NCBI GenBank assembly: GCA_964016885.1
Contig: OZ024743.1
Coordinates: 351,044,001 to 351,108,000, forward strand
Source: Eledone cirrhosa
Taxonomy: Eukaryota
Direction: 5' to 3'
Length of the DNA stretch: 64,000 bases
Shown here: positions 1 through 62,056 of the stretch, piece after piece
How the letters are laid out: each line of letters begins with the position of its first letter
How positions within the stretch are numbered: the first letter of the stretch is position 1
Made by a program: the position numbers and the translations under genes
The notes under the pieces: model-generated
The model's database searches: none
What the model was told of the DNA's origin: nothing
Seen by the model: the letters and a program-made list of their open reading frames with translations, nothing else

Positions 1-3000
1 ACTGTTACTACTACTGTTTATGCTGCTGTTGTGTTACTGCTGCTGCTATTACTGTTACTAGTACTGTTGATGCTGCTGCTGTTGTGTTACTGCTGCTGCT
101 ATTACTGTTACTACTACTGTTTATGCTGCTGCTGCTGTTGTGTTACTGCTGCTGCTATTACTGTTACTACTACTGTTTATGCTGCTGCTGTTGTGTTACT
201 GCTGCTGCTATTACTGTTACTACTACTGTTGATCATGCTGCTGTTGTGTTACTGCTGCTGCTATTACTGTTACTACTACTGTTTATGTTGCTGCTGTTGT
301 GTTACTGCTGCTGCTATTGCTGTTACTACTACTGTTGATGATGCTGCTGTTGTGTTACTGCTGCTGCTATTACTGTTACTACTACTGTTTATGCTGCTGC
401 TGTTGTGTTACTGCTGCTGCTATTACTGTTACTACTACTGTTGATGCTGCTGCTGTTGTGTTACTGCTGCTGCTATTACTGTTACTACTACTGTTGATGC
501 TACTGCTGTTGTGTTACTGCTGCTGCTATTGCTGTTACTACTACTGTTGATGCTGCTGCTGTTGTGTTACTGCTGCTGCTATTGCTGTTACTACTACTGT
601 TGATGCTGCTGCTGTTGTGTTACTGCTGCTGTAATTACTGTTTCTACTACTGTTGATGCTGCTGCTGTTGTGTTACTGCTGCTGCTATTGCTGTTACTAC
701 TACTGTTTATGCTGCTGTTGTGTTACTGCTGCTGCTATTACTGTTACTACTACTGTTTAGGCTGCTGCTGTTGTGTTACTGCTGCTGCTATTACTGTTAC
801 TACTACTGTTGATGCTGCTGCTGTCGTGTTACTGCTGCTGCTATTACTGTTACTACTACTGTTTATGCTGCTGCTGTTGTGTTACAGCTGCTGCTATTAC
901 TGTTACTACTACTGTTGATGATGCTGCTGTTATGTTACTGCTGCTGCTATTACTGTTACTACTACTGTTTATGTTGCTGCTGTTGTGTTACTGCTGCTGC
1001 TATTGCTGTTACTACTACTGTTGATGCTGCTGCTGTTGTGTTACTTCTGCTGCTATTACTGTTACTACTACTGTTTATGCTGCTGCTGTTGTGTTACTGC
1101 TGCTGCTATTACTGTTACTACTACTGTTGATGCTGCTGTTGTTGTGTTACTGCTGCTGCTATTACTGTTACTACTACTGTTTATGCTGCTGCTGTTGTGT
1201 TACTGCTGCTGCTATTACTGTTACTACTACTGTTTATGCTGCTGCTGTTGTGTTACTTCTGCTGCTATTACTGTTACTACTACTGTTGATGATGCTGCTG
1301 TTGTGTTACTGCTGCTGCTATTACTGTTACTACTACTGTTGATGATGCTGCTGTTGTGTTACTGCTGCTGCTATTACTGTTACTACTACTGTTGGTGCTG
1401 CTGTTGTGTTAATGCTGCTGCTATTACTGTTACTACTACTGTTGGTGCTGCTGCTGTTGTGTTACTGCTGCTGCTATTACTGTTTCTACTACTGTTGATG
1501 CTGCTGCTGTTGTGTTACTGCTGCTGCTATTACTGTTACTACTACTGTTGATGCTGCTGCTGTTGTGTTACTGCTGCTGCTATTGCTGTTTCTACTACTG
1601 TTGATGCTGCTGCTGTTGTGTTACTGCTGCTGCTATTACTGTTACTACTACTGTTTATGCTGCTGCTGTTGTGTTACTGCTGCTGCTATTACTGTTACTA
1701 CTACTGTTGATGATGCTGCTGTTGTGTTACTGCTGCTGCTATTACTGTTACTACTACTGTTTATGTTGCTGCTGTTGTGTTACTGCTGCTGCTATTGCTG
1801 TTACTACTACTGTTGATGATGCTGCTGTTACTGTTACTACTACTGTTTATGCTGCTGCTGTTGTGTTACTGCTGCTGCTATTACTGTTACTATTACTGTT
1901 GATGCTGCTGCTGTTGTGTTACTGCTGCTGCTATTACTGTTACTACTACTGTTGATGCTACTGCTGTTGTGTTACTGCTGCTGCTATTGCTGTTACTACT
2001 ACTGTTGATGCTGCTGCTGTTGTGTTACTGCTGCTGCTATTGCTGTTACTACTACTGTTGATGCTGCTGCTGTTGTGTTACTGCTGCTGTAATTACTGTT
2101 ACTACTACTGTTGATGCTGCTGCTGTTGTGTTACTGCTGCTGCTATTGCTGTTACTACTACTGTTTATGCTGCTGTTGTGTTACTGCTGCTGCTATTACT
2201 GTTACTACTACTGTTTATGCTGCTGCTGTTGTGTTACTGCTGCTGCTATTACTGTTACTGCTACTGTTTATGCTGCTGCTATTGCTGTTACTACTACTGT
2301 TTATGCTGCTGTTGTGTTACTGCTGCTGCTATTACTGTTACTACTACTGTTGATGCTGCTGCTGTTGTGTTACTTCTGCTGCTATTACTGTTACTACTAC
2401 TGTTGATGCTGCTGCTGTTGTGTTACTGCTGCTGCTATTACTGTTACTACTACTGTTTATGCTGCTGCTGTTGTGTTACTGCTGCTGCTATTGCTGTTAC
2501 TACTACTGTTGATGCTGCTGCTGTTGTGTTACTGCTGCTGCTATTGCTGTTACTACTACTGTTGATGCTGCTGCTGTTGTGTTACTGCTGCTGTAATTAC
2601 TGTTTCTACTACTGTTGATGCTGCTGCTGTTGTGTTACTGCTGCTGCTATTGCTGTTACTACTACTGTTTATGCTGCTGTTGTGTTACTGCTGCTGCTAT
2701 TACTGTTACTACTACTGTTTAGGCTGCTGCTGTTGTGTTACTGCTGCTGCTATTACTGTTACTACTACTGTTGATGCTGCTGCTGTCGTGTTACTGCTGC
2801 TGCTATTACTGTTACTACTACTGTTTATGCTGCTGCTGTTGTGTTACTGCTGCTGCTATTACTGTTACTACTACTGTTGATGATGCTGCTGTTATGTTAC
2901 TGCTGCTGCTATTACTGTTACTACTACTGTTTATGTTGCTGCTGTTGTGTTACTGCTGCTGCTATTGCTGTTACTACTACTGTTGATGCTGCTGCTGTTG

Positions 3001-6000
3001 TGTTACTTCTGCTGCTATTACTGTTACTACTACTGTTTATGCTGCTGCTGTTGTGTTACTGCTGCTGCTATTACTGTTACTACTACTGTTGATGCTGCTG
3101 TTGTTGTGTTACTGCTGCTGCTATTACTGTTACTACTACTGTTTATGCTGCTGCTGTTGTGTTACTGCTGCTGCTATTACTGTTACTACTACTGTTTATG
3201 CTGCTGCTGTTGTGTTACTTCTGCTGCTATTACTGTTACTACTACTGTTGATGATGCTGCTGTTGTGTTACTGCTGCTGCTATTACTGTTACTACTACTG
3301 TTGATGATGCTGCTGTTGTGTTACTGCTGCTGCTATTACTGTTACTACTACTGTTGGTGCTGCTGTTGTGTTAATGCTGCTGCTATTACTGTTACTACTA
3401 CTGTTGGTGCTGCTGCTGTTGTGTTACTGCTACTGCTATTACTGTTTCTACTACTGTTGATGCTGCTGCTGTTGTGTTACTGCTGCTGCTATTACTGTTA
3501 CTACTACTGTTGATGCTGCTGCTGTTGTGTTACTGCTGCTGCTATTGCTGTTTCTACTACTGTTGATGCTGCTGCTGTTGTGTTACTGCTGCTGCTATTA
3601 CTGTTACTACTACTGTTTATGCTGCTGCTGTTGTGTTACTGCTGCTGCTATTACTGTTACTACTACTGTTGATGATGCTGCTGTTGTGTTACTGCTGCTG
3701 CTATTACTGTTACTACTACTGTTTATGTTGCTGCTGTTGTGTTACTGCTGCTGCTATTGCTGTTACTACTACTGTTGATGATGCTGCTGTTACTGTTACT
3801 ACTACTGTTTATGCTGCTGCTGTTGTGTTACTGCTGCTGCTATTACTGTTACTATTACTGTTGATGCTGCTGCTGTTGTGTTACTGCTGCTGCTATTACT
3901 GTTACTACTACTGTTGATGCTACTGCTGTTGTGTTACTGCTGCTGCTATTGCTGTTACTACTACTGTTGATGCTGCTGCTGTTGTGTTACTGCTGCTGCT
4001 ATTGCTGTTACTACTACTGTTGATGCTGCTGCTGTTGTGTTACTGCTGCTGTAATTACTGTTACTACTACTGTTGATGCTGCTGCTGTTGTGTTACTGCT
4101 GCTGCTATTGCTGTTACTACTACTGTTTATGCTGCTGTTGTGTTACTGCTGCTGCTATTACTGTTACTACTACTGTTTATGCTGCTGCTGTTGTGTTACT
4201 GCTGCTGCTATTACTGTTACTGCTACTGTTTATGCTGCTGCTATTGCTGTTACTACTACTGTTTATGCTGCTGTTGTGTTACTGCTGCTGCTATTACTGT
4301 TACTACTACTGTTGATGCTGCTGCTGTTGTGTTACTTCTGCTGCTATTACTGTTACTACTACTGTTGATGCTGCTGCTGTTGTGTTACTGCTGCTGCTAT
4401 TACTGTTACTACTACTGTTTATGCTGCTGCTGTTGTGTTACTGCTGCTGCTATTACTGTTACTACTACTGTTTATGCTGCTGCTGTTGTGTTACTGCTGC
4501 TGCTATTACTGTTACTACTACTGTTGATGATGCTGCTGTTGTGTTACTGCTGCTGCTATTACTGTTACTACTACTGTTGATGCTGCTGCTGTTGTGTTAC
4601 TGCTGCTGCTATTGCTGTTTCTACTACTGTTGATGCTGCTGCTGTTGTGTTACTTCTGCTGCTATTACTGTTACTACTACTGTTGATGCTGCTGCTGTTG
4701 TGTTACTGCTGCTGCTATTGCTGTTTCTACTACTGTTTATGCTGCTGCTGTTGTGTTACTGCTGCTGCTATTACTGTTACTACTACTGTTGATGATGCTG
4801 CTGTTGTGTTACTGCTGCTGCTATTACTGTTACTACTACTGTTTATGCTGCTGCTGTTGTGTTACTGCTGCTGCTATTACTGTTACTACTACTGTTGATG
4901 TTGCTGCTGTTGTGTTACTGCTGCTGCTATTACTGTTACTACTACTGTTTATGCTGCTGCTGTTGTGTTACTGCTGCTGCTATTACTGTTACTACTACTG
5001 TTTATGCTGCTGCTGTTGTGTTACTGCTGCTGCTATTACTGTTACTGCTACTGTTTATGTTGCTGCTGTTGTGTTACTGCTGCTGCTATTACTGTTACTA
5101 CTACTGTTGATGTTGCTGCTGTTGTGTTACTGCTGCTGCTATTACTGTTACTACTACTGTTTATGCTGCTGCTGTTGTGTTACTGCTGCTGCTATTACTG
5201 TTACTACTACTGTTTATGCTGCTGCTGTGGTGTTACTGCTGCTGCTATTACTGTTACTACTACTGTTGATGCTGCTGCTGTGGTGTTACTGCTGCTGCTA
5301 TTACTGTTACTACTACTGTTTATGCTGCTGTTGTGTTACTGCTGCTGCTATTACTGTTACAACTACTGTTTAGGCTGCTGCTGTTGTGTTACTGCTGCTG
5401 CTATTACTGTTACTACTACTGTTGATGTTGCTGCTGTTGTGTTACTGCTGCTGCTATTACTGTTACTACTACTGTTTATGCTGCTGCTGTTGTGTTACTG
5501 CTGCTGCTATTACTGTTACTACTACTGTTTATGTTGCTGCTGTTGTGTTACTGCTGCTGCTATTACTGTTACTACTACTGTTTATGCTGCTGCTGTTGTG
5601 TTACTGCTGCTGCTATTACTGTTACTACTACTGTTGATGTTGCTGCTGTTGTGTTACTGCTGCTGCTATTACTGTTACTACTACTGTTTATGTTGCTGCT
5701 GTTGTGTTACTGCTGCTGCTATTACTGTTACTACTACTGTTTATGCTGCTGCTGTTGTGTTACTGCTGCTGCTATTACTGTTACTGCTACTGTTTATGCT
5801 GCTGCTGTTGTGTTACTGCTGCTGCTATTACTGTTACTACTACTGTTGATGTTGCTGCTGTTGTGTTACTGCTGCTGCTATTACTGTTACTACTACTGTT
5901 TATGCTGCTGCTGTTGTGTTACTGCTGCTGCTATTACTGTTACTACTACTGTTTATGCTGCTGCTGTTGTGTTACTGCTGCTGCTATTACTGTTACTGCT

Positions 6001-7430
6001 ACTGTTTATGTTGCTGCTGTTGTGTTACTGCTGCTGCTATTACTGTTACTACTACTGTTTATGCTGCTGCTGTTGTGTTACTGCTGCTGCTATTACTGTT
6101 ACTGCTACTGTTTATGCTGCTGCTGTTGTGTTACTGCTGCTGCTATTACTGTTACTACTACTGTTGATGCTGCTGCTGTAGTGTTACTGCTGCTGCTATT
6201 ACTGTTACTACTACTGTTGATGATGCTGCTGTTGTGTTACTGCTGCTGCTATTGCTGTTACTACTACTGTTACTGCTGCTGCTATTACTGTTACTGCTAC
6301 TGTTTATGCTGCTGCTGTTGTGTTACTGCTGCTGCTATTACTGTTACTGCTACTGTTTATGTTGCTGCTGTTGTGTTACTGCTGCTGCTATTACTGTTAC
6401 TACTACTGTTTATGCTGCTGCTGTTGTGTTACTACTGCTGCTATTACTGTTACTACTACTGTTTATGCTGCTGCTGTTGTGTTACTGCTGCTGCTATTAC
6501 TGTTACTACTACTGTTTATGCTGCTGCTGTTGTGTTACTGCTGCTGCTATTACTGTTACTGCTACTGTTTATGCTGCTGCTGTTGTGTTACTGCTGCTGC
6601 TATTACTGTTACTACTACTGTTGATGCTGCTGCTGTTGTGTTACTGCTGCTGCTATTACTGTTACTACTACTGTTGATGCTGCTGCTGTTGTGTTACTGC
6701 TGCTGCTATTACTGTTACTACTACTGTTTATGCTGCTGCTGTTGTGTTACTGCTGCTGCTATTACTGTTACTGCTACTGTTTATGTTGCTGCTGTTGTGT
6801 TACTGCTGCTGCTATTACTGTTACTGCTACTGTTTATGTTGCTGCTGTTGTGTTACTGCTGCTGCTATTACTGTTACTACTACTGTTTATGTTGCTGCTG
6901 TTGTGTTACTGCTGCTGCTATTACTGTTACTGCTACTGTTTATGCTGCTGCTGTTGTGTTACTGCTGCTGCTATTACTGTTACTACTACTGTTGATGCTG
7001 CTGCTGTTGTGTTACTGCTGCTGCTATTACTGTTACTACTACTGTTGATGCTGCTGCTGTTGTGTTACTGCTGCTGCTATTACTGTTACTACTACTGTTT
7101 ATGCTGCTGCTGTTGTGTTACTGCTGCTGCTATTACTGTTACTGCTACTGTTTATGTTGCTGCTGTTGTGTTACTGCTGCTGCTATTACTGTTACTGCTA
7201 CTGTTTATGTTGCTGCTGTTGTGTTACTGCTGCTGCTATTACTGTTACTGCTACTGTTTATGTTGCTGCTGTTGTGTTACTGCTGCTGCTATTACTGTTA
7301 CTGCTACTGTTTATGCTGCTGCTGTTGTGTTACTGCTGCTGCTATTACTGTTACTACTACTGTTGATGATGCTGCTGTTGTGTTACTGCTGCTGCTATTA
7401 CTGTTACTGCTACTGTTTATGCTGCTGCTC
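1..7430. repeat. 53-bp tandem satellite built from GCT/ACT/GTT triplets, with a 1962-bp higher-order duplication
   Basis: Unit gctgctgctgttgtgttactgctgctgctattactgttactactactgtt(t/g)at. Variant units recur at +1962 (ORF starts 670/2632, 985/2947, 1565/3527). Confidence 0.97.
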
Positions 7431-7509
7431 TAACTGAAGCCTTTCTCTATCCATGCACTAACACACACACATATCAGTGGTCATGCCTATATCGAAGCTC
7501 TTGGTACAG

Positions 7510-16562: not shown

Positions 16563-16917
16563 TCTGATATAACACCTGCAACCCTATGGTATCCAATGAT
16601 GTTGACTAGTTCTTCTTTTTGGTAAATATCATCTTGGTTAAGAGAGTGGGACTGGCTTTGTGCAGTGCCTTTGCTCACTATAAAAGCTTCACGGCACAGG
16701 CATTGCTTTATATCTGGAGATCTCTCTGCACTTGTCGTCACATGGTGCCATGGGCCCAGCACTATGTGTCAATAATTGTCACAAGTGTAGTGTTTGTACC
16801 AGAGTTTTCAAGTCGCTGGCTGGATTAAAAAGTCACACTCGTTCAGCGCATCGGTAGGGGTTCTCCTACATGGATATAAAGTGGTGGCCGTACTCGAAAA
16901 CGAGTTGGCAACCAGCA
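16563..16917 (-). mobile_element. Structured (CATA)n-inserted non-coding element, subfamily A, 3'-truncated
   Basis: Reverse complement of the 5' ~355 nt of 61464-62056, flanked by (TATG)n. Confidence 0.85.
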
Positions 16918-22327: not shown

Positions 22328-22330
<3 letters not shown>

Positions 22331-23025
22331 TGGCTGCAAACTCTGATGAGAGTATTGCAATCGATTGTCAGATTACAGAAAATGGTGCACTTTTAGGACA
22401 CAGCCAGCCACACGAACCTGTAACACATCCTGAGCAACCAATTCCTGAAGGTGTTTTACGTGGTGAAAGGCCTTGCACTGGACCAATCACACTCTTTGAG
22501 CATCGAAAACAATACCCGAAAAGCAGAACTGGTCAACATCATCGGATGTTTCCGAAGCCGCAAGGTTTTTTTCTTCGGAGTTTCCTTCTCTTAGAAGGAT
22601 GTTGTGACAACAACTGGGGGCCTTTCACTCCCAGGTGAAAAATAAAGTACTATTTGGATGGCCGTTGACTCTGCTGAGTTTCTCTGCCATTTGCCAGGTC
22701 TTGTATTTCATCCTGCAGGGTGTCCAAATATCACTCCCCTCACCAAGCAAGCTTGGTGGGGTTGCCGGTTTAGTCGCCGACGACCCGACCAAGAGACGGG
22801 TTGTACTGGGTTACATGTTAACAGTAGCACTCGAGAGTGATCTGACCCAAAGTTCCTCTGCCCTTTGCCAGGTTTTGTATTTCATCCCGCACGGTGTTCA
22901 AATATCACCCCCCTCAGCAAGCAAGGTTGGTGGGGTTGCCGGTTTAGTCGCCGACGACCCAACCATGAGACAGGTTGTACTGGGTTACATGTTGCCAGTA
23001 GCACTCGTGAATGACCTGACACAAA
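22328..23025 (+). mobile_element. Structured non-coding element, subfamily C, with tandem duplication of its 3' ~175 nt
   Basis: Starts tggtggctgc; shares conserved blocks (tcaacatcat, tgacaa hairpin, ttggatggccgttgactc, caccaag..cttggtggggttgcc) with subfamilies A and B. The 3' module repeats at 22852-23025. Flanked by (TA)n. Confidence 0.85.
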
Positions 23026-25397: not shown

Positions 25398-25966
25398 TAT
25401 GTATGTATGTATGTATGCTCGGGTCGTTGGCGACTAAACTGGCAACCCTACCAAGGTTTCTTGGTGAAAAAGGTGACTTTGGACATCCCGCAGGACTAAA
25501 AACAAAACCTGTCAAAGGGCAAAGGAGCTCTTAAGAGTCAACGGCCATCCAAAATCACTGGGAGAGATGACCCCTTAGCCTTTGTCAAGGCAGAATACTA
25601 GGAGAAGGAAAACTCTGATATAACACCTGCAACCCTGATGGTATCCAATGATGTTGACATGTTTTTCTTTTTGGTAAATATCATCTTGGTTAAGAGAGTG
25701 GGACTGACTTTGTGCAGTGCCTTTCCTCACTATAAAAGCTTCACGGCACAGGCATTGCTTTATATCTGGAATTCTCTCTGCACTTGTCGTCACATGGTAC
25801 CATGGGCCCAGCACTATGTGTCAATAATTGTAACAAGTGTAGTGTTTGTACCAGTTTTCAAGTCGCTGGCTGGACTAAAAAGTCACACTCGTTCAGCGCA
25901 TCGGTAGGGTTCTCCTACATGGATATAAAGTAGTGGCCGTACTCGAAAACGAGTTGGCAGCCACCA
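25398..25966 (-). mobile_element. Structured (CATA)n-inserted element, subfamily A
   Basis: Reverse complement of 61464-~62018; ends at gacccga-g-CAT and merges into (CATA)n. Confidence 0.88.
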
Positions 25967-26032: not shown

Positions 26033-26937
26033 CGAGGTGTGTCAGAAAAGTTCCAGGACTGATGTCACAAAAGATTTATTTCAAACCCAAACTTCACACT
26101 AAGAGTTTTCTCCTTCAAAGTAATCCCCCTGGAGTCTAATGCACTTTTCCATCCTTTTCTGTCACGCTTGCATGCACTCCTGGAAGGATTCTTCCGGGAT
26201 CCTCCGCAGTTCCGTCGTCACGGCCTTTTTGATGTCGTCCACATCTTCAAAACGGGTCTCCTCGGGTCGTACTCGAAGATCCATGACTCATCACCGGTGC
26301 TGACTGTCCCTAGCAAGTCTGGTTCGGTTTCAAGACGCTCGAGGATGTCCTGGCACACTTGCATGCGTCGACCCTTCTGGTCATCGTTCAGCAGTTTTGG
26401 CACCATCTTCGCGCAGACTTTCCGCATGTCCAAATATTCAGTGAGAATCTTCCAGACGCTGTCCCCATTCATGCCCAGCTCATTTGCCATCAGTCGAACA
26501 GTCAGCCGACGATCGCTACGCACCATCTGCCTGACGCGCTCAACGTTGACCTCAGTCCTGATTGTTGAAGGACTTCCGCTCCTGGGGTCATCTTCCACGT
26601 CCTCGCGTCCTTCTTTAAACCTCTTGCACCACTCAAAAATACGCGAGCGTGACGTCATCTCATCTCCATACACTTGCTGCAGCAATCCCAGTGCTTCTGA
26701 CGGAGCTTTCAAGTTTGTTCGTTGCTCTGTGCTCATTGCTTGACGACCTGAAACAGAAGATGTATATAAAACATGTATATAAAATTATGAAGAAAAACGT
26801 TTGATCACTGCAGAGAGCTAAGATTACAGTTACATACTCCAGGGTGATTACTTTGAAGGAGAAAACTCTTAGTGTGAAGTTTGGGTTTGAAATAAATCTT
26901 TTGTGACATCAGTCCTGGAACTTTTCTGACTCACCTC

Positions 26938-26938
<1 letters not shown>
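26033..26938 (-). mobile_element. Internally deleted mariner transposon (transposase remnant 26218-26736)
   Basis: ~105-bp TIRs cgaggtgtgtcagaaaagttccaggactga..., TA on both sides. ORF has HTH region (EQRxNLK, FEWCKRFKEGRE, DDPRSG), MVPKLL and TGDESW, but the rest of the DDD domain is missing. Confidence 0.95.
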
Positions 26939-26980
<42 letters not shown>

Positions 26981-26986
<6 letters not shown>

Positions 26987-29022
26987 GGCGGGTAAAGTTC
27001 CCGAGACGCGTGGACGAGTTCTCTCCAGCGGCCTCTGTCCCTCATTATCGCTGCCATGTCCTGTGTCTCCAACAGACCAGTGTCTGTCCTTAGGGCATCA
27101 ACATACGTTAACCTTGGTCTTCCTATTCCAGTGTGTCCATGTAGGGGCTCCCACAGGAGCACTGAGTGCAATGTCAACTCTGGATGTCGGTGAGCATGTC
27201 CAGCTAACTTCAGTCTCCTCTGTGTCACTTTTGAGTTGACTTTTGGGAGGCTCCCATACAGCTCTGAGTTTTTCATCCTCAGTGTATACTGATTAATTTT
27301 CAGAGCCATCCTCAGCATTCTCATGTAGCACCCATCCACCATCTGAGTGAGTTTATTGATCAGTGTCCAAGTCTCAGGCCCGTACAGCAGCACAGACTCC
27401 ACTACAGCAATGAAGAGGCGGATTTTCAGGTCTTTACGAAGGTCCGACTTCCACACTGATCTCAAGCTGTGGCACGCCGCCCAGGCTTTGCTCTTCCTCT
27501 CAACCACATCATCTTCCGTATTCCCAATTTTTGCTCCCAAATACAGGAAGTCCTCAACCAATTCTAGCGACTTCCCGCCTACATTAGTGATCCCCTTTGG
27601 CTTCTCAACATTCTCTACCAGATATGTTATTTTAGTCTCATTCATTCTCAGCCCCACACTCATCGACACAGTCTCAACCTCCTGCATCAAATCCTCTGCC
27701 TCCTTCACTGTATTTGTCACCAAAACTATGTCGTCGGCAAATTCAGTATCCGATATCTTGTTCGCCTTAACTCTCCTGCTCTGAGCCGGTGCTACAGTAA
27801 AGCCAGAGTCCTGGTGTTTCTCCAGTGCAAGGCGCATACAATAGTCCACTACGATGATAAAAAGGTAGAGAGCCAATGTATCTCCCTGGAGCACTCCAGC
27901 CAGTATCTCAAAGAACTCTGTCATCCCATCGGGTGTAATGACTTGGGCTTTGGTGTTGGTGTTGAGCAGTGATATCAGGTCCACTATCTTCTTGGGGATT
28001 CCATAAGCCTGTAAGATCTTCATCAGGCAATGACGGTCCACAGAATCAAACGCCTTCCTAAAGTCAATGAAAACCATGACCGCAGGAAGGCACTTTGCTC
28101 TAGCTCCCTCTAATATCCTCCTCAGCATCAGGATGTGACTGAAGAAAGAGCAAGGCTCAGCCCTGGAGAGCAATCTATGACTGGGGAGCTTTCAAGGAAG
28201 ATGATAAGCTACAGGAGAGGTTCACAGTGGAAGTGAGGAACAGGTTCAGTGCTCTGTGTGGAGAGGCAGAGGAGAGAGAGATTGGATGGACTGAGGAGAG
28301 TGTGACGAGGATGTACGGGCACTTCACCAATACAGTGGCGGAAGCAAGTGAGACCCTGGTGCCGAGGAGAAAGAACAAAAGGAAGCACGTCAGCTCTGCA
28401 GACCCAAAAGTGTGTGCAGCCAGAGAACACCTGAAAGCTGCCAAGGACCAATTCTATGCTGATCCTACAGAGGAGAGGGTGGAGACTGTGGAGGTGATGA
28501 GGGAAGAACTCTGTACCGCTTACACTGAGGCCAGAGAGGAGGCACTGATAGAGAAGATCAGAAGTGTGGAGAGAGAGGTTGACAGGTCTGGATGTAAGGA
28601 TCATCAATGAGATCACAGAGAGGAAGAGAAGGTGTTCGAGTCATATCCAGGGAACAGGGCCCGAGGATAGAAAGAGGAAATGGCTAGACCATTTTAGGAC
28701 ACTACTAGGAGGGCCGCCCTCCACAGCCCAGAGCACTGGGGAGATCAGGCGGCTGTTTGAAGAGCTGGATATTGAGACAGAGCTCTTCACCAGAGAGGAG
28801 CTTCAGAGAGCCAAGAAGAAGATGAAGGAGGGCAAGGCTCATGGAGAAGATGGAGTGGCATCAGAGGGGATGAAGAGGTGTGATTTTGATGATATCATCC
28901 TGGGGTTCTGTAACCAGGCACTGGAGAAAGGAGTTGCCCCGAATCAGTGGAGGATCAGTAACACCGACCCAGTGTCAAAGAAGGGAGATCTCTCTAACAC
29001 CAACAACTACAGGGGGGTCTCA

Positions 29023-29026
<4 letters not shown>
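26981..29026 (-). mobile_element. RTE-clade LINE, 5'-truncated with a 5' inversion
   Basis: Minus 28140-26985: FIDFRKAFDSV, GVLQGDTLA, FADD, FLYLG, VESVLLYG, GRPRLTY. Plus 28141-29026: upstream ORF part YDWGAF..EVRNRFSAL..KKGDLSNTNNYRGVSL. (TA)n on both sides. Confidence 0.93.
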
Positions 29027-29066
<40 letters not shown>

Positions 29067-29082
29067 AACATACATACATACA

Positions 29083-29650
29083 TGGTGGCTGCCAACTCGT
29101 TTTCGAGTACGGCCACTACTTTATATCCATGTAGGAGAACCCCTATCGATGCGCTGAACGAGTGTGACTTTTTAGTCCAGCCACTTGAAAACTCTGGTAC
29201 AAACACTACACTTGTGACAATTATTGACACATAGTGCTGGGCCCATGGTACCATGTGACGACAAGTGCAGAGAGATCTCCAGATATAAAGCAATACCTGT
29301 GCCGTGAAGCTTTTATAGTGAGCAAAGGCACTGCACAAAGCCAGTCCCACTCTCTTAACCAAGATGATATTTACCAAAAAGAAGAACAAGTCAACATCAT
29401 TGGATACCATCAGGGTTGCAGGTGTTATATCAGAGTTTTCCTTCTCCTAGAATTCTGCCTTGACAAAGGCTAAGGGGTCATCTCTCACGGTGATTTTGGA
29501 TGGCCATTGACTCTTAAGAGCTCCTTTGCCCTCTGACAGGTTTTGTTTAGTTCTGCAGGATGTCCAAAGTCACCCTCCTCACCAAGAAACCTTGGTGGGG
29601 TTGCCAGTTTAGTCGCCAACGACCCGACCATGAGACAGGTTGTACTGGGA
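29083..29650 (+). mobile_element. Structured (CATA)n-inserted element, subfamily A
   Basis: Starts tggtggctgccaactcg right after (CATA)n; ends ctggga-TACAT in (CATA)n. Confidence 0.9.
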
Positions 29651-29747
29651 TACATACATACAAAACATACATACATACATACATACATACATACATACAT
29701 ACATACATACATACATACATACATACATACATACATACATACATACA

Positions 29748-30135
29748 TTGAAAACGTGTTCTGTTGTGGAGATCAGCTGCCCACATGATGTAAACGTTGT
29801 CAGAAAAATACAGGAGAAGGAGGACATCTACGGACCATTGATGAGGAGTTTACAAATCCAGTATCCAAGATACACCTTTAGCTTCATGCCCATCATTATT
29901 GGAGCTACGGGTTATATACCAACCCGCTTGGACCAAAGTATGACTGAACTTGGATTTGCGGACAAAGAGCTCAGCTCCCTAATTCATAGTCTACAAATGG
30001 CTGCGATAGCTGACACCTTCAAAATTTGCAAAACATTCTTGCGATTCAAGGGATGACAATTTCTTTTCTTTTACAACCTTGCACCAGGAAGGTAGCCTGT
30101 CAAAAAATATACTCGAAATTAAGAGAAAGAGATAA
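29748..30135 (+). mobile_element. R4/Dong-type RLE non-LTR retrotransposon, 3' fragment
   Basis: TCSVVEISCPHD..KIQEKEDIYGPL..MPIIIGATGY (restriction-like endonuclease end) plus short 3' UTR, with (CATA)n on both sides. Confidence 0.85.
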
Positions 30136-47025: not shown

Positions 47026-47797
47026 ACCAAAGATGTCATCGCGGTACTATCTACCTATGAAGCATGATGTAGTGGCCAAAACACTGTACAATGCAGTTCG
47101 TAAAAAAGATAGCCCCGATAATAAACACATTAAAAGCTACAACAATGTGGAAGACATCCATGTACATAATATGAAAGAGTACTGGTGGAATGTTCCAGTA
47201 AAAACCCCAATAAAATGCATGCATAACAGACCAGATATTATGATATCGGACAGGGAGAAGAAAACATGCACAGTAGTGGAAATTAGCTGCCCAGCAGATG
47301 CCAATATAATATCAAAGATTAGTGAAAAGGAGAATATTTATGCAGAACTGATGAGAAACTGCAGATACTCCACCCTGATTACACCTTCAGATTTATGCCT
47401 GTGATTATTGGGACACTGAGATATGTTAGTAACTGCCTCAATACAAATCTTGAGAAGCTAGGCTTCACAGGAACAGAAAGAACACAACTAGTTAGGAAAT
47501 TACAAGTACAATCCATTAATGGAACAGTAAAAATATGTAAAACATTCCAAACATTCTGCATCTAATAACTGCATATACACATGTACAGATACAAAGCATA
47601 TACACATGCACACATACAACTCAAAACATCCACATCCACACATACAATAACATCCATATCTACACATGTATGCATACATACGTACATACCTACCTAGTTG
47701 ATGTTCTCTAAATTCCAATGAGAGAGTCTTGTGTCTATGTTAGAAACCGACTCTCTCTCTATTGGCAAAACTTTGTGAAATTATAAAACCAGAAGAA
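47026..47797 (+). mobile_element. R4/Dong-type RLE retrotransposon, 5'-truncated (endonuclease domain and 3' UTR)
   Basis: KHDVVAKTLY..YWWN..HNRPDIM..VVEISCPAD..KISEKENIYAEL then, after a frameshift, MPVIIGTL..KICKTF: RHD-like and PD-(D/E)xK motifs. (CATA)n flanks. Confidence 0.9.
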
Positions 47798-47837
47798 CAT
47801 ACATACATACATACATACGTACATACACATACATACA

Positions 47838-48429
47838 TGATGGCTGCCCCCTCGTTATCGAGTATGACCATTGCACGATATACCATTATTAATAATTATT
47901 AATTAATTCTCTCGTGCAATGCCTGTGCGGGAAGATATTTTTTAAAGTGAGGAAAGATTGTGCACTGAGCCAATCCCACTCTCTGAGCGACAGTAGCTAT
48001 AACCCGAAAAGAAGAAAAGATCAACATCATCGGTAACTACTGAGCCGCAGGTTTTATATCGGAGTTATCCCAGTTTCCTGAGTAGCCTTCTTCTAGAAGA
48101 ATGCCCTGACAAAGGCTAGGGGTCCTTCACTCCCAGTGGTTTAACCGCGCGATCAGGTGTCCAGCCCGACTATTTCTATGTCCCCGCGCATATCCATACA
48201 TATGTACATGTGTATATACATATTTACACACATTTGGATAGCCGTTGACTCTTATGAGTTCTTTCGCCCTTCGTCAGGTTTTGTTTTTTGTCCTGCAGAG
48301 TGTGCGAAATCACCCTCCTCACCAAGTAAACTTGGTGGGGTTGCCGCTTTAGTCGCCGATGACCCGACCATACGACAGGCTGTACTGGGTTACATGTTAC
48401 CAGTAGCACTCAAGAGTGACGCGACATAA
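47838..48429 (+). mobile_element. Structured (CATA)n-inserted element, subfamily B, apparently full length
   Basis: Starts tgatggctgccccctcg after (CATA)n; ends cactcaagagtgacgcgacataa then (CATA)n. Confidence 0.9.
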
Positions 48430-51975: not shown

Positions 51976-52569
51976 ATGAGGACCATCAGGGACTTTGTCT
52001 GTCTCTGTTCGAGTAATCTAGTGACTTGGTTGTTAGACTCTACGATCAAAAGGCCGTGAATTCAATTCCTTGATTATGTTCTTGAACAAAAGAATAAATG
52101 TTTGTAAAGCTTTTCATTGTGATGTTGAATATATAAATGATTATGCTTGTGAGTGCATGTTTGAGCGTGTCTATGTATATAAATATGTGCTGTCTAGTGA
52201 CAACTACAATAACTCTGACCAGTAAAAGTATTAAAAAAGAGTATATATATTTTTATACTTATACATATGCTTCTATATATTCGAGGTGTATACAGATATA
52301 TTGATAAAATGACGTGTGTGCATGTGTGTGTGTACACAATGAGATCAAACGACTACCTTAGTAGTTCTGTACTGGTAAGGGATGATCTGAAGATCCTGTT
52401 CATTCTAGTATTTCATTATTCTCATGAGGATCAATCAAAATCAATCAAATTATTGCTTATTTTCCTTCAGCTACACTACGTTTGCTTTTTTTTCTAATGC
52501 TCCTTTTGTTATTATTTTTGTTTCCCTTGCAATTTTTTATTGTTCTTATTAGAGTTATTACTACGGAAC

Positions 52570-55500
52570 GTTGATGTTGGGTATGCTGTTATTGCTGTTG
52601 GTGTTGTTGTTGGGGTTGATGTTGGGTATGCTGTTATTGCTGTTGGTGCTGTTGTTGGGGTTGATGTTGGGTATGCTGTTAATGCTGTTGGTGTTGTTGT
52701 TGGGGTTGATGTTGGGTATGCTGTTATTGCTGTTGGTGTTGTTGTTGGGGTTGATGTTGGGTATGCTGTTATTGCTGTTGGTGTTGTTGTTGGGGTTGAT
52801 GTTGGGTATGCTGTTATTGCTGTTGGTGTTGTTGTTGGGGTTGATGTTGGGTATGCTGTTATTGCTGTTGGTGTTGTTGTTGGGGTTGATGTTGGGTATG
52901 CTGTTATTGCTATTGGTGTTGTTGTTGGGGTTGATGTTGGGTATGCTGTTATTGCTGTTGGTGTTGTTGTTGGGGTTGATGTTGGGTATGCTGTTATTGC
53001 TGTTGGTGTTGTTGTTGGGGTTGATGTTGGGTATGCTGTTATTGCTGTTGGTGTTGTTGTTGGGGTTGATGTTGGGTATGCTGTTATTGCTGTTGGTGTT
53101 GTTGTTGGGGTTGATGTTGGGTATGCTGTTATTGCTGTTGGTGTTGTTGTTGGGGTTGATGTTGGGTATGCTGTTATTGCTGTTGGTGTTGTTGTTGGGG
53201 TTGATGTTGGGTATGCTGTTATTGCTGTTGGTGTTGTTGTTGGGGTTGATGTTGGGTATGCTGTTATTGCTGTTGGTGTTGTTGTTGGGGTTGATGTTGG
53301 GTATGCTGTTATTGCTGTTGGTGTTGTTGTTGGGGTTGATGTTGGGTATGCTGTTATTACTGTTGGTGTTGTTGTTGGGGTTGATGTTGGGTATGCTGTT
53401 ATTGCTGTTGGTGTTGTTGTTGGGGTTGATGTTGGGTATGCTGTTATTGCTGTTGGTGTTGTTGTTGGGGTTGATGTTGGGTATGTTGTTATTGCTGTTG
53501 GTGTTGTTGTTGGGGTTGATGTTGGGTATGCTGTTATTGCTGTTGGTGTTGTTGTTGGGGTTGATGTTGGGTATGCTGTTATTGCTGTTGGTGTTGTTGT
53601 TGGGGTTGATGTTGGGTATGTTGTTATTGCTGTTGGTGTTGTTGTTGGGGTTGATGTTGGGTATGCTGTTCTTGCTGTTGGTGTTGTTGTTGGGGTTGAT
53701 GTTGGGTATGCTGTTATTGCTGTTGGTGTTGTTGTTGGGGTTGATGTTGGGTATGCTGTTATTGCTGTTGGTGTTGTTGTTGGGGTTGATGTTGGGTATG
53801 TTGTTATTGCTGTTGGTGTTGTTGTTGGGGTTGATGTTGGGTATGCTGTTATTGCTGTTGGTGTTGTTGTTGGGGTTAATGTTGGGTATGCTGTTATTGC
53901 TGTTGGTGTTGTTGTTGGGGTTGATGTTGGGTATGCTGTTATTGCTGTTGGTATTGTTGTTGGGGTTGATGTTGGGTATGCTGTTATTGCTGTTGGTGTT
54001 GTTGTTGGGGTTGATGTTGGGTATGCTCTTATTGCTGTTGGTGTTGTTGTTGGGGTTGATGTTGGGTATGCTGTTATTGCTGTTGGTGTTGTTGTTGGGG
54101 TTGATGTTGGGTATGCTGTTATTGCTGTTGGTGTTGTTGTTGGGGTTGATGTTGGGTATGCTGTTATTGCTGTTGGTGTTGTTGTTGGGGTTGATGTTGG
54201 GTATGCTGTTATTGCTGTTGGTGTTGTCGTTGGGGTTAATGTTGGGTATGCTGTTATTGCTGTTGGTGTTGTTGTTGGGGTTAATGTTGGGTATGCTGTT
54301 ATTGCTGTTGGTGTTGTTGTTGGGGTTAATGTTGGGTATGCTGTTATTGCTGTTGGTGTTGTTGTTGGGGTTGATGTTGGGTATGCTGTTATTGCTGTTG
54401 GTGTTGTTGTTGGGGTTGATGTTGGGTATGCTGTTATTGCTGTTGGTGTTGTTGTTGGGGTTGATGTTGGGTATGCTGTTATTGCTGTTGGTGTTGTTGT
54501 TGGGGTTGATGTTGGGTATGCTGTTATTGCTGTTGGTGTTGTTGTTGGGGTTAATGTTGGGTATGCTGTTATTGCTGTTGGTGTTGTTGTTGGGGTTGAT
54601 GTTGGGTATGCTGTTATTGCTGTTGGTGTTGTTGTTGGGGTTGATGTTGGGTATGCTGTTATTGCTGTTGGTGTTGTTGTTGGGGTTGATGTTGGGTATG
54701 CTGTTATTGCTGTTGGTGTTGTTGTTGGGGTTGATGTTGGGTATGCTGTTATTGCTGTTGGTGTTGTTGTTGGGGTTGATGTTGGGTATGCTGTTATTGC
54801 TGTTGGTGTTGTTGTTGGGGTTGATGTTGGGTATGTTGTTATTGCTGTTGGTGTTGTTGTTGGGGTTGATGTTGGGTATGCTGTTATTGCTGTTGGTGTT
54901 GTTGTTGGGGTTGATGTTGGGTATGCTGTTATTGCTGTTGGTGTTGTTGTTGGGGTTGATGTTGGGTATGTTGTTATTGCTGTTGGTGTTGTTGTTGGGG
55001 TTGATGTTGGGTATGCTGTTATTGCTGTTGGTGTTGTTGTTGGGGTTGATGTTGGGTATGCTGTTATTGCTGTTGGTGTTGTTGTTGGGGTTGATGTTGG
55101 GTATGCTGTTATTGCTGTTGGTGTTGTTGTTGGGGTTGATGTTGGGTATGCTGTTATTGCTGTTGGTGTTGTTGTTGGGGTTGATGTTGGGTATGTTGTT
55201 ATTGCTGTTGGTGTTGTTGTTGGGGTTGATGTTGGGTATGCTGTTATTGCTGTTGGTGTTGTTGTTGGGGTTGATGTTGGGTATGCTGTTATTGCTGTTG
55301 GTGTTGTTGTTGGGGTTGATGTTGGGTATGTTGTTATTGCTGTTGGTGTTGTTGTTGGGGTTGATGTTGGGTATGCTGTTCTTGCTGTTGGTGTTGTTGT
55401 TGGGGTTGATGTTGGGTATGCTGTTATTGCTGTTGGTGTTGTTGTTGGGGTTGATGTTGGGTATGCTGTTATTGCTGTTGGTGTTGTTGTTGGGGTTGAT

Positions 55501-57636
55501 GTTGGGTATGTTGTTATTGCTGTTGGTGTTGTTGTTGGGGTTGATGTTGGGTATGCTGTTATTGCTGTTGGTGTTGTTTTTGGGGTTAATGTTGGGTATG
55601 CTGTTATTGCTGTTGGTGTTGTTGTTGGGGTTGATGTTGGGTATGCTGTTATTGCTGTTGGTGTTGTTGTTGGGGTTGATGTTGGGTATGCTGTTATTGC
55701 TGTTGGTGTTGTTGTTGGGGTTGATGTTGGGTATGCTCTTATGCTGTTGGTGTTGTTGTTGGGGTTGATGTTGGGTATGCTGTTATTGCTGTTGGTGTTG
55801 TTGTTGGGGTTGATGTTGGGTATGCTGTTATTGCTGTTGGTGTTGTTGTTGGGGTTGATGTTGGGTATGCTGTTATTGCTGTTGGTGTTGTTGTTGGGGT
55901 TGATGTTGGGTATGCTGTTATTGCTGTTGGTGTTGTTGTTGGGGTTAATGTTGGGTATGCTGTTATTGCTGTTGGTGTTGTTGTTGGGGTTAATGTTGGG
56001 TATGCTGTTATTGCTGTTGGTGTTGTTGTTGGGGTTAATGTTGGGTATGCTGTTATTGCTGTTGGTGTTGTTGTTGGGGTTGATGTTGGGTATGCTGTTA
56101 TTGCTGTTGGTGTTGTTGTTGGGGTTGATGTTGGGTATGCTGTTATTGCTGTTGGTGTTGTTGTTGGGGTTGATGTTGGGTATGCTGTTATTGCTGTTGG
56201 TGTTGTTGTTGGGGTTGATGTTGGGTATGCTGTTATTGCTGTTGGTGTTGTTGTTGGGGTTGATGTTGGGTATGCTGTTATTGCTGTTGGTGTTGTTGTT
56301 GGGGTTGATGTTGGGTATGCTGTTATTGCTGTTGGTGTTGTTGTTGGGGTTGATGTTGGGTATGCTGTTATTGCTGTTGGTGTTGTTGTTGGGGTTAATG
56401 TTGGGTATGCTGTTATTGCTGTTGGTGTTGTTGTTGGGGTTAATGTTGGGTATGCTGTTATTGCTGTTGGTGTTGTTGTTGGGGTTGATGTTGGGTATGC
56501 TGTTATTGCTGTTGGTGTTGTTGTTGGGGTTGATGTTGGGTATGCTGTTATTGCTGTTGGTGTTGTTGTTGGGGTTGATGTTGGGTATGCTGTTATTGCT
56601 GTTGGTGTTGTTGTTGGGGTTGATGTTGGGTATGCTGTTATTGCTGTTGGTGTTGTTGTTGGGGTTGATGTTGGGTATGCTGTTATTGCTGTTGGTGTTG
56701 TTGTTGGGGTTGATGTTGGGTATGCTGTTATTGCTGTTGGTGTTGTTGTTGGGGTTGATGTTGGGTATGCTGTTATTGCTGTTGGTGTTGTTGTTGGGGT
56801 TGATGTTGGGTATGCTGTTATTGCTGTTGGTGTTGTTGTTGGGGTTGATGTTGGGTATGCTGTTATTGCTGTTGGTGTTGTTGTTGGGGTTGATGTTGGG
56901 TATGCTGTTATTGCTGTTGGTGTTGTTGTTGGGGTTGATGTTGGGTATGCTGTTATTGCTGTTGGTGTTGTTGTTGGGGTTGATGTTGGGTATGCTGTTA
57001 TTGCTGTTGGTGTTGTTGTTGGGGTTGATGTTGGGTATGCTGTTATTGCTGTTGGTGTTGTTGTTGGGGTTGATGTTGGGTATGCTGTTATTGCTGTTGG
57101 TGTTGTTGTTGGGGTTGATGTTGGGTATGCTGTTATTGCTGTTGGTGTTGTTGTTGGGGTTGATGTTGGGTATGTTGTTATTGCTGTTGGTGTTGTTGTT
57201 GGGGTTGATGTTGGGTATGCTGTTATTGCTGTTGGTGTTGTTGTTGGGGTTGATGTTGGGTATGTTGTTATTGCTGTTGGTGCTGTTGTTGGGGTTGATG
57301 TTGGGTATGTTGTTATTGCTGTTGGTGCTGTTGTTGGGGTTGATGTTGGGTATGTTGTTATTGCTGTTGGTGCTGTTGTTGGGGTTGATGTTGGGTATGT
57401 TGTTATTGCTGATGTTGGTGTGGTTGTTAGGTATGCTGTTATTGCTGTTGTTGCTGTTGTTGGGGTTGATGTTGGGTATGCTGTTATTGCTGATATTGGG
57501 TATGCTGTTATTGCTGTTGTTGGGGTTGATGTTGGGTATGTTGTTATTGCTGTTGTTGGGTATGTTGTTATTGCTGTTGTTGGGTATGCTGTTATTGCTG
57601 TTGTTGGGGTTGATGTTGGGTATGCTGTTATTGCTG
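52570..57636. repeat. 45-bp tandem satellite (~110 units) with a 1710-bp higher-order duplication
   Basis: Unit gttgatgttgggtatgctgttattgctgttggtgttgttgttggg. Variants recur at +1710 (cttgctg 53671/55381; gctctt 54025/55735). 1-nt deletion near 55742. Confidence 0.98.
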
Positions 57637-57923
57637 TGGGGGCATGTGGCCTAGTGGTAAGGGTGTTGAACTTACGAACATAATGTCGTAGGTTCGATTC
57701 CTGGGTTGTGTGTTGTGTTCTTGAACAAAACACTTCATTTCACGTTGCTCCAGTATACTCAGCTGAAAATGACTACCAGCAATAGCTGGGAGTTTAACCC
57801 TGCAATGGACTGGCGTCCTGTCCAGGGGGAAGCCTTGTACTCTCAATCACTTCACTCCATGAAACCGAGATAAGCACCGGCCAAATGAGTCTTCTGGCTT
57901 AAGACAGACTTTAGACTAGACTT
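57637..57923 (+). mobile_element. tRNA-derived SINE inserted in the degenerate end of the 45-bp satellite
   Basis: A-box TGGCCTAGTGG, B-box GGTTCGATTCC, core gttgtgttcttgaacaaaacacttcatttcac, (AGACT)-type tail, TSD-like tatgc(t/c)gttattgctgt on both sides. Confidence 0.88.
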
Positions 57924-60676: not shown

Positions 60677-60825
60677 CTACAAATGGCTGCGATAGCTGGC
60701 ACCTTTAAAATTTACAAAACATTCTTGCGATTCAAAGTATGATAATTTCTTTTCTTTTACAACTTGCCACCAGGAAGGTGGCCGGTCAAAAATGTACTCG
60801 AAATTAATAGAAATAGAAACCTAAA
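60677..60825 (+). mobile_element. Extreme 3' end of the R4/Dong-type element
   Basis: ctacaaatggctgcgatagctg..aaaacattcttgcgattcaa..caccaggaaggt..tactcgaaattaa matches 29991-30135. Confidence 0.85.
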
Positions 60826-60893: not shown

Positions 60894-61364
60894 TGATGGC
60901 TGCCCCCTCGTTATCGAGTATGGCCATTGCACGTTATACTATTATTAATAATTATTAATTAATTCTATCGTGCAATGCCTGTGCGTGAAGATATTTCTTA
61001 AAGTGAGGAAAGACTTTGCACTGAGCCGATCCCACTCTCTGAGCCACAGTAGCTATAACCGGAAAAGAAGAAAAGATCAACATCATCGGTAACTACTGAG
61101 CCGCAGGTTTTATATCGGAGTTATCCCAGTTTCCTGAGTTGTCTTCTAGAAGAATGCCCTGACAAAGTCTAGGGGTTCTTCACTCCCAGTGGTTTAACCG
61201 CGCGATCGGGTGTCCAGCCTGACTATTTCTATGTTCTCGCGCATATACATATGTACATGTGTATATACATATTTACACACTTTTGGATGGCCGTTGACCC
61301 TTATGAGTTCTTCCGCCCTTTGTCAGGTGTTGTTTTTTGTCCTGCAGGGTGTCCAAAATCACCC
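60894..61364 (+). mobile_element. Structured (CATA)n-inserted element, subfamily B, 3'-truncated
   Basis: Close copy of 47838-48315. Confidence 0.9.
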
Positions 61365-61463: not shown

Positions 61464-62056
61464 TGGTGGCTGGCAACTCGTTTTCGAGTACGGCCACTAC
61501 TTTATATCCATGTAGGATTACCCCTACCGATGCGCTGAACGAGTGTTACTTTTTAGTCCAGACTGCGACTTGAAAACTCTGGTACAAACACTACACTTGT
61601 GACAATTATTGACACATAGTGCTGGGCCCATGGTACCATGTGACGACAAGGGCAGAGAGATCTCCAGATATAAAGCAATGCCTGTGCCGTGAAGCTTTTA
61701 TAGTGAGCAAAGGCACTGCACAAAGCCAGTCCCACTTTCTTAACCAAGATGATATTTACCAAAAAGAAGGACAAGTCAACATCATTGGATACCATCAGGG
61801 TTGCAGGTGTTATATCAGAGTTTTCCTTCTCCTAGAATTCTGCCTTGACAAAGGCTAAGGGGTCATCTCTCCCAGTGATTTTGGATGGCAATTGACTCTT
61901 AAGAGGTCCTTTGCCCTTTGACAGGTTTTGTTTTTAGTCCTGCAGGATGTCCAAAGTCACCCTCCTCACCAAGAAACCTTGGTGGGGTTGCCAGTTTAGT
62001 CGCCAACGACCCGACCATGAGACAGGTTGTACTGGGATACATGTTACCAGTAGCAC
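61464..62056 (+). mobile_element. Structured (CATA)n-inserted element, subfamily A, near full length
   Basis: Close copy of 29083-29650 extending to ccagtagcac; (CATA)n on both sides. Confidence 0.9.

Follow-up and report, generated by a model that had tools for sequence, protein, structure and literature searches.

Bipartite non-autonomous derivatives of RTE long interspersed nuclear elements (LINEs) form a known class that includes RTESINE1/2, WALLSI3, Bov-A and RTE-N (relevant sections of Kojima 2018, PMC5786205). These elements join the 5' and 3' parts of an RTE LINE, lack its open reading frame (ORF), carry no RNA-derived head and end in a microsatellite tail. We analysed a 64,000-nt stretch of the Eledone cirrhosa genome (OZ024743.1 of assembly GCA_964016885.1, 351,044,001 to 351,108,000, forward strand; hereafter the window), where an initial annotation had described a ~0.6-kb repeat as a structured, mobile RNA belonging to no assignable family. 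The results showed that the repeat shares the above features of bipartite RTE derivatives, and that its first ~58 nt are predicted to form a pseudoknotted fold resembling the exonuclease-resistant RNAs (xrRNAs) of flaviviruses. Mobility and selection on RNA structure were upheld; the lack of an assignable family was not.

The main text of Kojima 2018, in its relevant sections, mentions 5' ribozymes but describes no xrRNA and no helix joining the 5' and 3' ends; its supplement, searched by motif, contained no match to the present element. Another close system is RTE-2_OV of Octopus vulgaris (PMC9115989), which likewise has a single ORF with endonuclease, reverse transcriptase (RT) and C2H2 domains and a microsatellite-rich 3' untranslated region (UTR). 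Three of the four RTE-2_OV primers had no match at <=2 mismatches in 190 loci, and the remaining one matched four loci with 2 mismatches; RTE-2_OV is probably a different family from the present LINEs.

For xrRNAs of subclass 1a we used a definition comprising a first pseudoknot (PK1) of 1-2 bp (G3-C), a second (PK2) in which L3 pairs over 2-8 bp with the strand following P1, a block of Xrn1 and a 15-16-nt ring round the 5' end. According to the relevant passages of Vicens and Kieft 2021 (PMC8374639), xrRNAs had been characterised only in viruses, and a eukaryotic one was named as an open goal; PMC12397905, PMC12412911 and bioRxiv 2025.03.11.642701 also treat them, in the passages concerned, as viral. 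In the literature searched, no later report of an xrRNA in a retroelement was found, nothing was found on 5'-3' pairing in RTE elements, and, with few subscription journals covered, neither the xrRNA-like 5' module nor the 5'-3' helix was encountered. The element class is known; these two features appear to be new.

Copies of the element and its RNA strand

All seven reported copies and their three subfamilies (A, B and C) were recovered, together with the CTCG/ACTCT hairpins, both invariant linkers and the GACA-loop hairpins (GCCTTGACAAAGGC at 61842-61855 and GTTGTGACAACAAC at 22601-22614), and the compensatory changes between families were real. Identity was 95-96% among A copies and 93% among B copies, and the subfamilies were ~70% alike in the middle block. 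Full-length A measures 609 nt, and the window copies are mostly 5'-truncated. The copies and the parts discussed below are as follows, with strands given for the RNA as we read it.

16563..16917, plus strand: subfamily A copy, 5'-truncated, nt 254-609
16780..16857, plus strand: in-frame C2H2 finger remnant and stop within the A copy 16563-16917
22328..22846, minus strand: subfamily C copy, full length
22851..23021, minus strand: C 5' domain, second tandem copy
25415..25966, plus strand: subfamily A copy, 5'-truncated, nt 55-609
29083..29655, minus strand: subfamily A copy, 5'-truncated, nt 31-609
47838..48426, minus strand: subfamily B copy, full length
60894..61364, minus strand: subfamily B copy, 5'-truncated, nt 112-610
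61464..62056, minus strand: subfamily A copy, spanning nt 17-609 of the full 609 nt, 16 nt missing at the 5' end; 3' end at 61464, then (TGTA)n
61472..61494, minus strand: 3'-terminal stem-loop common to the element and the LINE 3' UTR, a likely RT recognition site
61524..61601, minus strand: LINE ORF-end remnant, C2H2 finger and stop, with a one-base frameshift in this copy
61842..61855, minus strand: LINE 5'-region hairpin with a UGUC loop on the RNA strand (the GACA loop of the opposite strand)

The repeat is far more abundant than chance would allow, with thousands of candidates per subfamily in the 3.0-Gb genome. A fourth short family, D, was found at 30 loci, so that this one genome holds at least four short families, separately derived, with a common 195-nt 5' domain. 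The truncation points of subfamily A cluster at the border of this domain (nt 194-207, ~13/76 copies), perhaps owing to a stall of the reverse transcriptase. Copies sit in (TA)n/(TGTA)n tracts, and target-site duplications were indistinguishable since both flanks are microsatellite. A solo long terminal repeat or a miniature inverted-repeat transposable element was excluded by the one-sided truncation and the lack of terminal repeats. An Rfam scan of the window gave no family at cut-off, in agreement with the initial annotation, and no tRNA, 5S or 7SL head was detected in the elements by the same measure. Families A-E may already bear repeat-library names: 893 unclassified, recently active families of short interspersed nuclear elements (SINEs) have been described from an octopus (PMC13282606, relevant section), so the present families may be in a library under another label.

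The absence of a shared ORF, claimed for the repeat, did not hold, because A, read on the opposite strand, codes for a C2H2 finger and then a stop. In copy 16563-16917 this strand reads through the finger and stop into ~60 nt with the stem-loop and the (TGTA)n tail. The remnant matched Pfam zf-C2H2 with an E-value of 6e-5 and 23.7 bits, just below the cut-off of 25.2.

We then compared the two ends of the copies. The TGGTGGCTG end was near-constant, and the opposite end was variable. Genome-wide counts of exact 27-mers of subfamily A gave 25,636 for the 3' end and 9,353 for the 5' end. Among 46 A copies picked up as bystanders, and thus unselected, the 3' end was intact in 41 and the 5' end in 15; among 30 chosen by a mid-element pattern, the corresponding numbers were 28 and 8 (overlapping loci kept, edge hits dropped). 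Such one-sided loss at the 5' end is expected of target-primed reverse transcription, on the strand complementary to the TGGTGG-first one proposed earlier. G-U wobbles had been said to fix the TGGTGG-first strand; in nine 5'-domain helices across nine rows, besides 346 Watson-Crick cells, 31 wobbles were valid on the LINE strand and 34 on the other, which refutes that argument. Folding energies disagreed as well, family A alone being slightly better on the TGGTGG-first strand (-198.6 vs -193.4 kcal/mol) and the consensus on the LINE strand (-206.6 vs -185.1), so that neither wobbles nor energies decide the strand. It is LINE homology and truncation polarity that identify the RNA strand as the LINE strand.

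Parent LINEs

The loci around the copies contained LINE 3' ends with the same terminal stem-loop, and full-length LINEs were located through protein searches. Subfamily B matched LINE L121 at 90% over 307 nt directly 5' of a frame of 1,086 codons; over the final 40 nt, 4 kb downstream, identity was 95%. It matched both ends of L177, L178 and L180 (1,240-1,245-codon frames) likewise. Over L121 and its relatives, including L177 and L206, identity was 90-93% across ~307 nt at the 5' end and 95-98% across the last 40-43 nt. In several of these B-parent LINEs the frame is open over 1,207-1,245 codons and encodes endonuclease, RT and C2H2 domains, as identified in L177. Subfamily C matched L123, L188 and L190 at 88-90% over ~470 nt at the 5' end and at 88-96% over the last 52 nt; its matching ends lie 3.3-3.5 kb apart in L188 and L190, and its start coincides with the start of the parent LINE in L123 and L188. 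A match to a LINE UTR, which the initial annotation had set up as the counter-evidence to its reading, was thus found for B and C. For A, the 5' part was only 70-74% identical to the C parent and the 3' part 62-65% identical to family E, a third LINE family of the same design.

In A, B and C the ORF is deleted and the 3' end is fixed, with a tandem-repeat tail. On sequence, all three are internally deleted non-autonomous derivatives, made of the 5' region and the 3' end of RTE-type LINEs. The single parental ORF with endonuclease, RT and C2H2 domains fits RTE; no protein match to the parental RT bore a clade name.

Two further observations concern these LINEs. A very young RTE-type family (L375-L394; L177-L185) has more than 70 intact frames of ~1,200-1,260 codons among 150 hits. 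In place of the 5' domain it has a low-complexity leader reaching ~1.3-1.8 kb; in older examples the leader holds an antisense part of another repeat. In addition, a ~2.4-kb RTE family E fragment followed directly by a B copy forms one amplified unit in 21 of 29 loci (L092-L120, L128-L139).

An xrRNA-like fold at the 5' end

The first ~58 nt of the element carry nearly every defining feature of flaviviral subclass 1a xrRNAs, taken from the relevant parts of PMC8374639, PMC8571300 (including Table S1) and PMC13161572. In the window, the fold is seen in three states.

22964..23021, minus strand: xrRNA-like fold with intact core in a C copy, the best-kept in the window
48369..48426, minus strand: xrRNA-like fold of a B copy, with P1 substitutions
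62016..62055, minus strand: remaining half of the xrRNA-like fold in an A copy (junction C, P3, P1 3' strand and PK2 strand), the P1 5' strand being truncated away

A three-way junction of a 5-bp P1, P2 and P3 is present, in which P2 and P3 covary and P1 (CAGGU/ACCUG) is identical to the P1 of dengue-2 xrRNA1. A single C lies between P2 and P3 in the majority sequences of families A-D and in both E copies, where it had not been selected for. The U-A-U letters of the base triple are correctly placed in the A-D majorities, the triple itself being predicted from these letters. PK1 could form by a G-C and a U-A pair; T preceded G in 127 of 135 junctions, though the microsatellite can supply a T, and covariation looked for in PK1 was not seen. 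PK2 comprises 4-5 bp in the element and 4-7 bp across all rows, with two-sided changes, and the following hairpin is present. Apparent PK2 covariation among single D copies was set aside as decay, since the D majority keeps the common register. The window region 22851-23021, by duplicating the C 5' domain, places two knots in series, an arrangement frequent in flaviviruses.

Rfam and a descriptor of the published subclass 1a features were both applied. In an E-value scan of a full-length A copy, the sole hit under E 1 was RF01415 (flavivirus SL-IV), on the first 69 nt of the LINE strand. Element 5' ends scored 24-30 bits with this model, below its gathering score of 54.5, and a genome-wide search at E<=10 gave three hits, all of them element 5' ends, at E 6.6-9. 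Across 1.92 Mb of loci the descriptor matched 94 sites, every one an element 5' end, compared with 2 matches in 9,000 shuffles. As a positive control, 12 of 120 viral-collection loci passed; among the listed flavivirus-sized records (10.6-11.1 kb) with a match near the 3' end, 7/10 passed, and 10/10 did so with a relaxed P2.

Compared with subclass 1a xrRNAs (RF01415; relevant parts of PMC8374639 and PMC8571300), the knot has the same P1/P2/P3 junction, single C, U and A-U in the triple position, PK1 partners, 4-7-bp PK2 and similar spacing. P1 closes with U-A, as in dengue-2 xrRNA1 and in xrRNA2 of Murray Valley encephalitis virus (MVE). It differs in that P3 also closes with U-A and in its score far below the Rfam cut-off; because the score and this one junction pair fall short, we did not file it under RF01415. 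Moreover, the flaviviral fold lies in a viral 3' UTR, whereas the present one is predicted at the 5' end of a genomic retroelement. The unusual structured RNA suspected in the initial annotation persists in another form, as an xrRNA-like knot of 58 nt located where the element actually begins, and most of the helices described belong to the LINE 5' region and the LINE 3' stem-loop. The same genome also holds a relative of the knot that is older and decayed (L388:1541-1610, plus strand), with a longer P2 like that of the metagenome type described next.

Relatives of the fold in metagenomes

One metagenome scan, with a pattern that prescribed P1, the junction C, the triple letters and PK1 but left PK2 free, yielded 11 loci. 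Ten passed the descriptor, and the eleventh has one P2 mismatch. P2 differs wholly between these loci yet is paired in each, and P3 shows two-sided changes in L370 and L371, at positions that the pattern did not constrain. PK2 occurs as CAUG/CAUG, CCUG/CAGG, CUAUGU/GCAUAG, AGCUG/CAGCU and UUCAUGU/ACAUGAA, the changes staying in register on both sides.

Over 12 rows, which are related and of which MAFFT misplaced parts of three, 95.1% of cells were paired compared with 89.8 +/- 1.0 in shuffles, and four pairs had changed on both sides. The covariation score exceeded that of 500/500 shuffles, and slid partners paired at 24-39%. In a permutation test of PK2, the cognate sum was reached by 2/120. 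The spacing between the PK2 strands was 18-20 nt in 9 of the 12 rows; counted by eye, it is 19 nt in Zika and West Nile xrRNA1.

At locus L364 the knot is followed by the same 190-nt domain and an endonuclease ORF that shares only 31% identity with the local LINE, indicating that the knot also heads a distant RTE-type LINE. L370, L371 and the L365 group run on into other sequence after the knot. In L371 (711-781, minus strand) it lies between a protein-kinase ORF and another ORF on a gene-dense, AT-rich contig with no LINE match, possibly, as a guess, a DNA virus. L365, L366, L368, L369, L372 and L373 hold the knot alone without the remaining LINE 5' domain and are apparently two versions of one locus or repeat with common flanks.

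A long-range helix between the two ends

In families A, B, C and D, and in three LINE families whose arms are 2.7-3.9 kb apart, the last part of the 5' block is complementary to the beginning of the 3' UTR, in a single register. Its arms in the A copy at 61464-62056 are as follows.

61667..61680, minus strand: long-range helix, 5' arm
61495..61508, minus strand: long-range helix, 3' arm

Two-sided changes were found in five columns. The helix of family E was predicted before its 5' end was retrieved, and the retrieved arms gave an 11-bp perfect helix. In an energy matrix, own-family pairing was best for A, B, E and the C LINE, and the family C majority paired about equally well with E.

Proposed mechanism and alternatives

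Taken together, the identity and strand of the element, the homology of B and C to LINEs at both ends, the fixed 3' end, the 5' truncation, the microsatellite position and the covariation of the knot and the 5'-3' helix are findings in which we have very high confidence. The repeat is almost certainly real and of a known class, with its RNA strand previously taken the wrong way round.

The 5' pseudoknotted fold is well supported, and it probably works as a flaviviral xrRNA does. Copies would be transcribed by read-through from upstream sequence; a 5'-3' exonuclease (Xrn1/Xrn2) would trim the upstream RNA and stall ~2 nt before the knot, which would thereby take over the job of the hepatitis delta virus (HDV)-like ribozymes in other RTE and R2 elements. 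The LINE protein would bind the 3' stem-loop and prime reverse transcription at a microsatellite. The 5'-3' helix would join both ends, and this may explain why deletions keeping both arms recur. One contrast fits this mechanism: the youngest LINE family, which has lost the knot, has a variable leader start, 19 copies (B-parent LINEs with a shared leader) beginning raggedly from +46 to -1,753, some of these starts being blurred by microsatellites. On balance we favour the whole chain, namely a bipartite RTE derivative, likely copied by a LINE RT, whose knot would set and protect the 5' terminus of the RNA, including by exonuclease resistance. We likewise lean, slightly less firmly, towards the broader proposal that a functional subclass 1a xrRNA heads the RTE-type retrotransposons of this genome and of other animals. 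Such a knot would be the first beyond RNA viruses, would exist in many thousands of genomic copies and would stand in for a ribozyme in carving the unit RNA from read-through transcripts.

Several results weigh against this interpretation. The RF01415 hit on full-length A reached 24.4 bits (E 0.073), far short of the 54.5 required; in L123, a C-parent copy, RF01415 was not hit at E<=10; and the genome-wide search was confined to 64 scored candidates and produced hits in 7 of 14 control genomes as well. P3 closes with U-A, unlike the C-G found in all 11 viral examples compared, and C-G pairs closing the junction are what the relevant part of PMC13161572 leads one to expect of subclass 1a. Of 154 genomic copies whose 5' domain is near-complete, no more than 79 still match the descriptor. 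The metagenome loci are few (~7 distinct sequences), and their P1, junction C, triple letters and PK1 give no independent support because the search pattern fixed them; shuffled loops reached the PK2 length in 1-10% of cases for five types and in 65% for L367. The knot is not essential, as the most active LINE lacks it, and the composite units of RTE fragment and B copy (21/29 loci) seem not to have been trimmed at the knot. When whole LINEs were scanned, the 5' arm ranked first among candidate partners for the 3' arm in just 6 of 11 copies. The parent of A was not found: a pattern search gave 56 matches, all reading as variant A copies, a protein search gave none, and A-type ends occurred on the LINE itself in 0/60 LINE stretches. 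The label RTE-type for the parents rests on their architecture.

The same bipartite RTE derivative might instead use its knot for another job, either binding of the LINE protein for 5' joining or an aid to ORF translation, with the likeness to xrRNAs a convergence of shape. Conserved blocks of unknown function in RTE 5' UTRs are on record (Kojima 2018, relevant section), and a well-supported fold of predicted function, the low Rfam score, the P3 closing pair and the composite units running through the fold would all suit such a role. Yet the match extends to single-stranded letters specific to ring closure (G3, U4, junction C, CA linker) and to the spacing of the PK2 strands, and the fold is located exactly at the RNA 5' end; we consider this alternative rather unlikely. 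Still less probable, to our judgement, is release of the element from read-through RNA by a self-cleaving ribozyme in the 5' fold. Ribozymes at the 5' end are recorded for RTE families (relevant passages of Kojima 2018 citing Ruminski 2011; PMC8501958), the HDV-like and twister ribozymes of RTE and R2 are also compact pseudoknotted 5'-end modules that likely define the element within a longer transcript, and about one third of A copies have a precise 5' end. However, no ribozyme family was detected by Rfam at cut-off or at E<=10, and the HDV-like double pseudoknot P1-P4 with its catalytic C in J4/2 gave 0 matches on the LINE strand in 5/5 families, with a descriptor that had no positive control. 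The action proposed for the knot also differs, being a passive block with no cleavage.

The reading of the repeat as an independent ~600-nt structured RNA of a new kind on the TGGTGG-first strand now appears extremely improbable. The slightly better folding of family A by itself on that strand and some helix extensions possible only there speak for it, but LINE homology at both ends runs in the opposite sense, the C2H2 remnant is encoded on the other strand, the truncation polarity places target-primed reverse transcription there, and the consensus fold prefers the LINE strand.

If the preferred interpretation, a knot acting as an xrRNA, is true, LINEs have a new way to define their 5' end, and the question of the origin of the flaviviral knot is raised, with the device either exchanged between flaviviruses and retroelements or closely convergent. 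The covarying 5'-3' helix offers a testable reason for the frequency of two-part RTE derivatives, and it is relevant to gene-writing templates based on RTE elements, in which both UTRs are used (PMC13708176, relevant section). Without the knot and the 5'-3' helix, the element would be an ordinary SINE-like repeat.

Other features of the window

LINE 3' fragments with a restriction-like endonuclease lie at 29748-30125, 47030-47800 and 60690-60825; they end in (CATA)n tracts like the copies and are on the opposite strand to the RTE derivatives. We take them to be Dong/R4-like, a label to which Pfam lent no support. A Dong/R4-type partner for the element was rejected, since microsatellites are common to both but the fragment ends mismatch those of the element.

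A further LINE fragment at 26869-29028 consists of two inverted pieces: the minus strand carries the RT (Pfam RVT_1, E 1.5e-17), and the plus strand carries the part upstream of it. At 900-7450 and 52500-57700, simple units are repeated in long tandem arrays, which give rise to long low-complexity open frames. Adjoining the A copy at 25415-25966, a transposase-like fragment extends over 26063-26784, which we presume from its motifs to be of mariner type.
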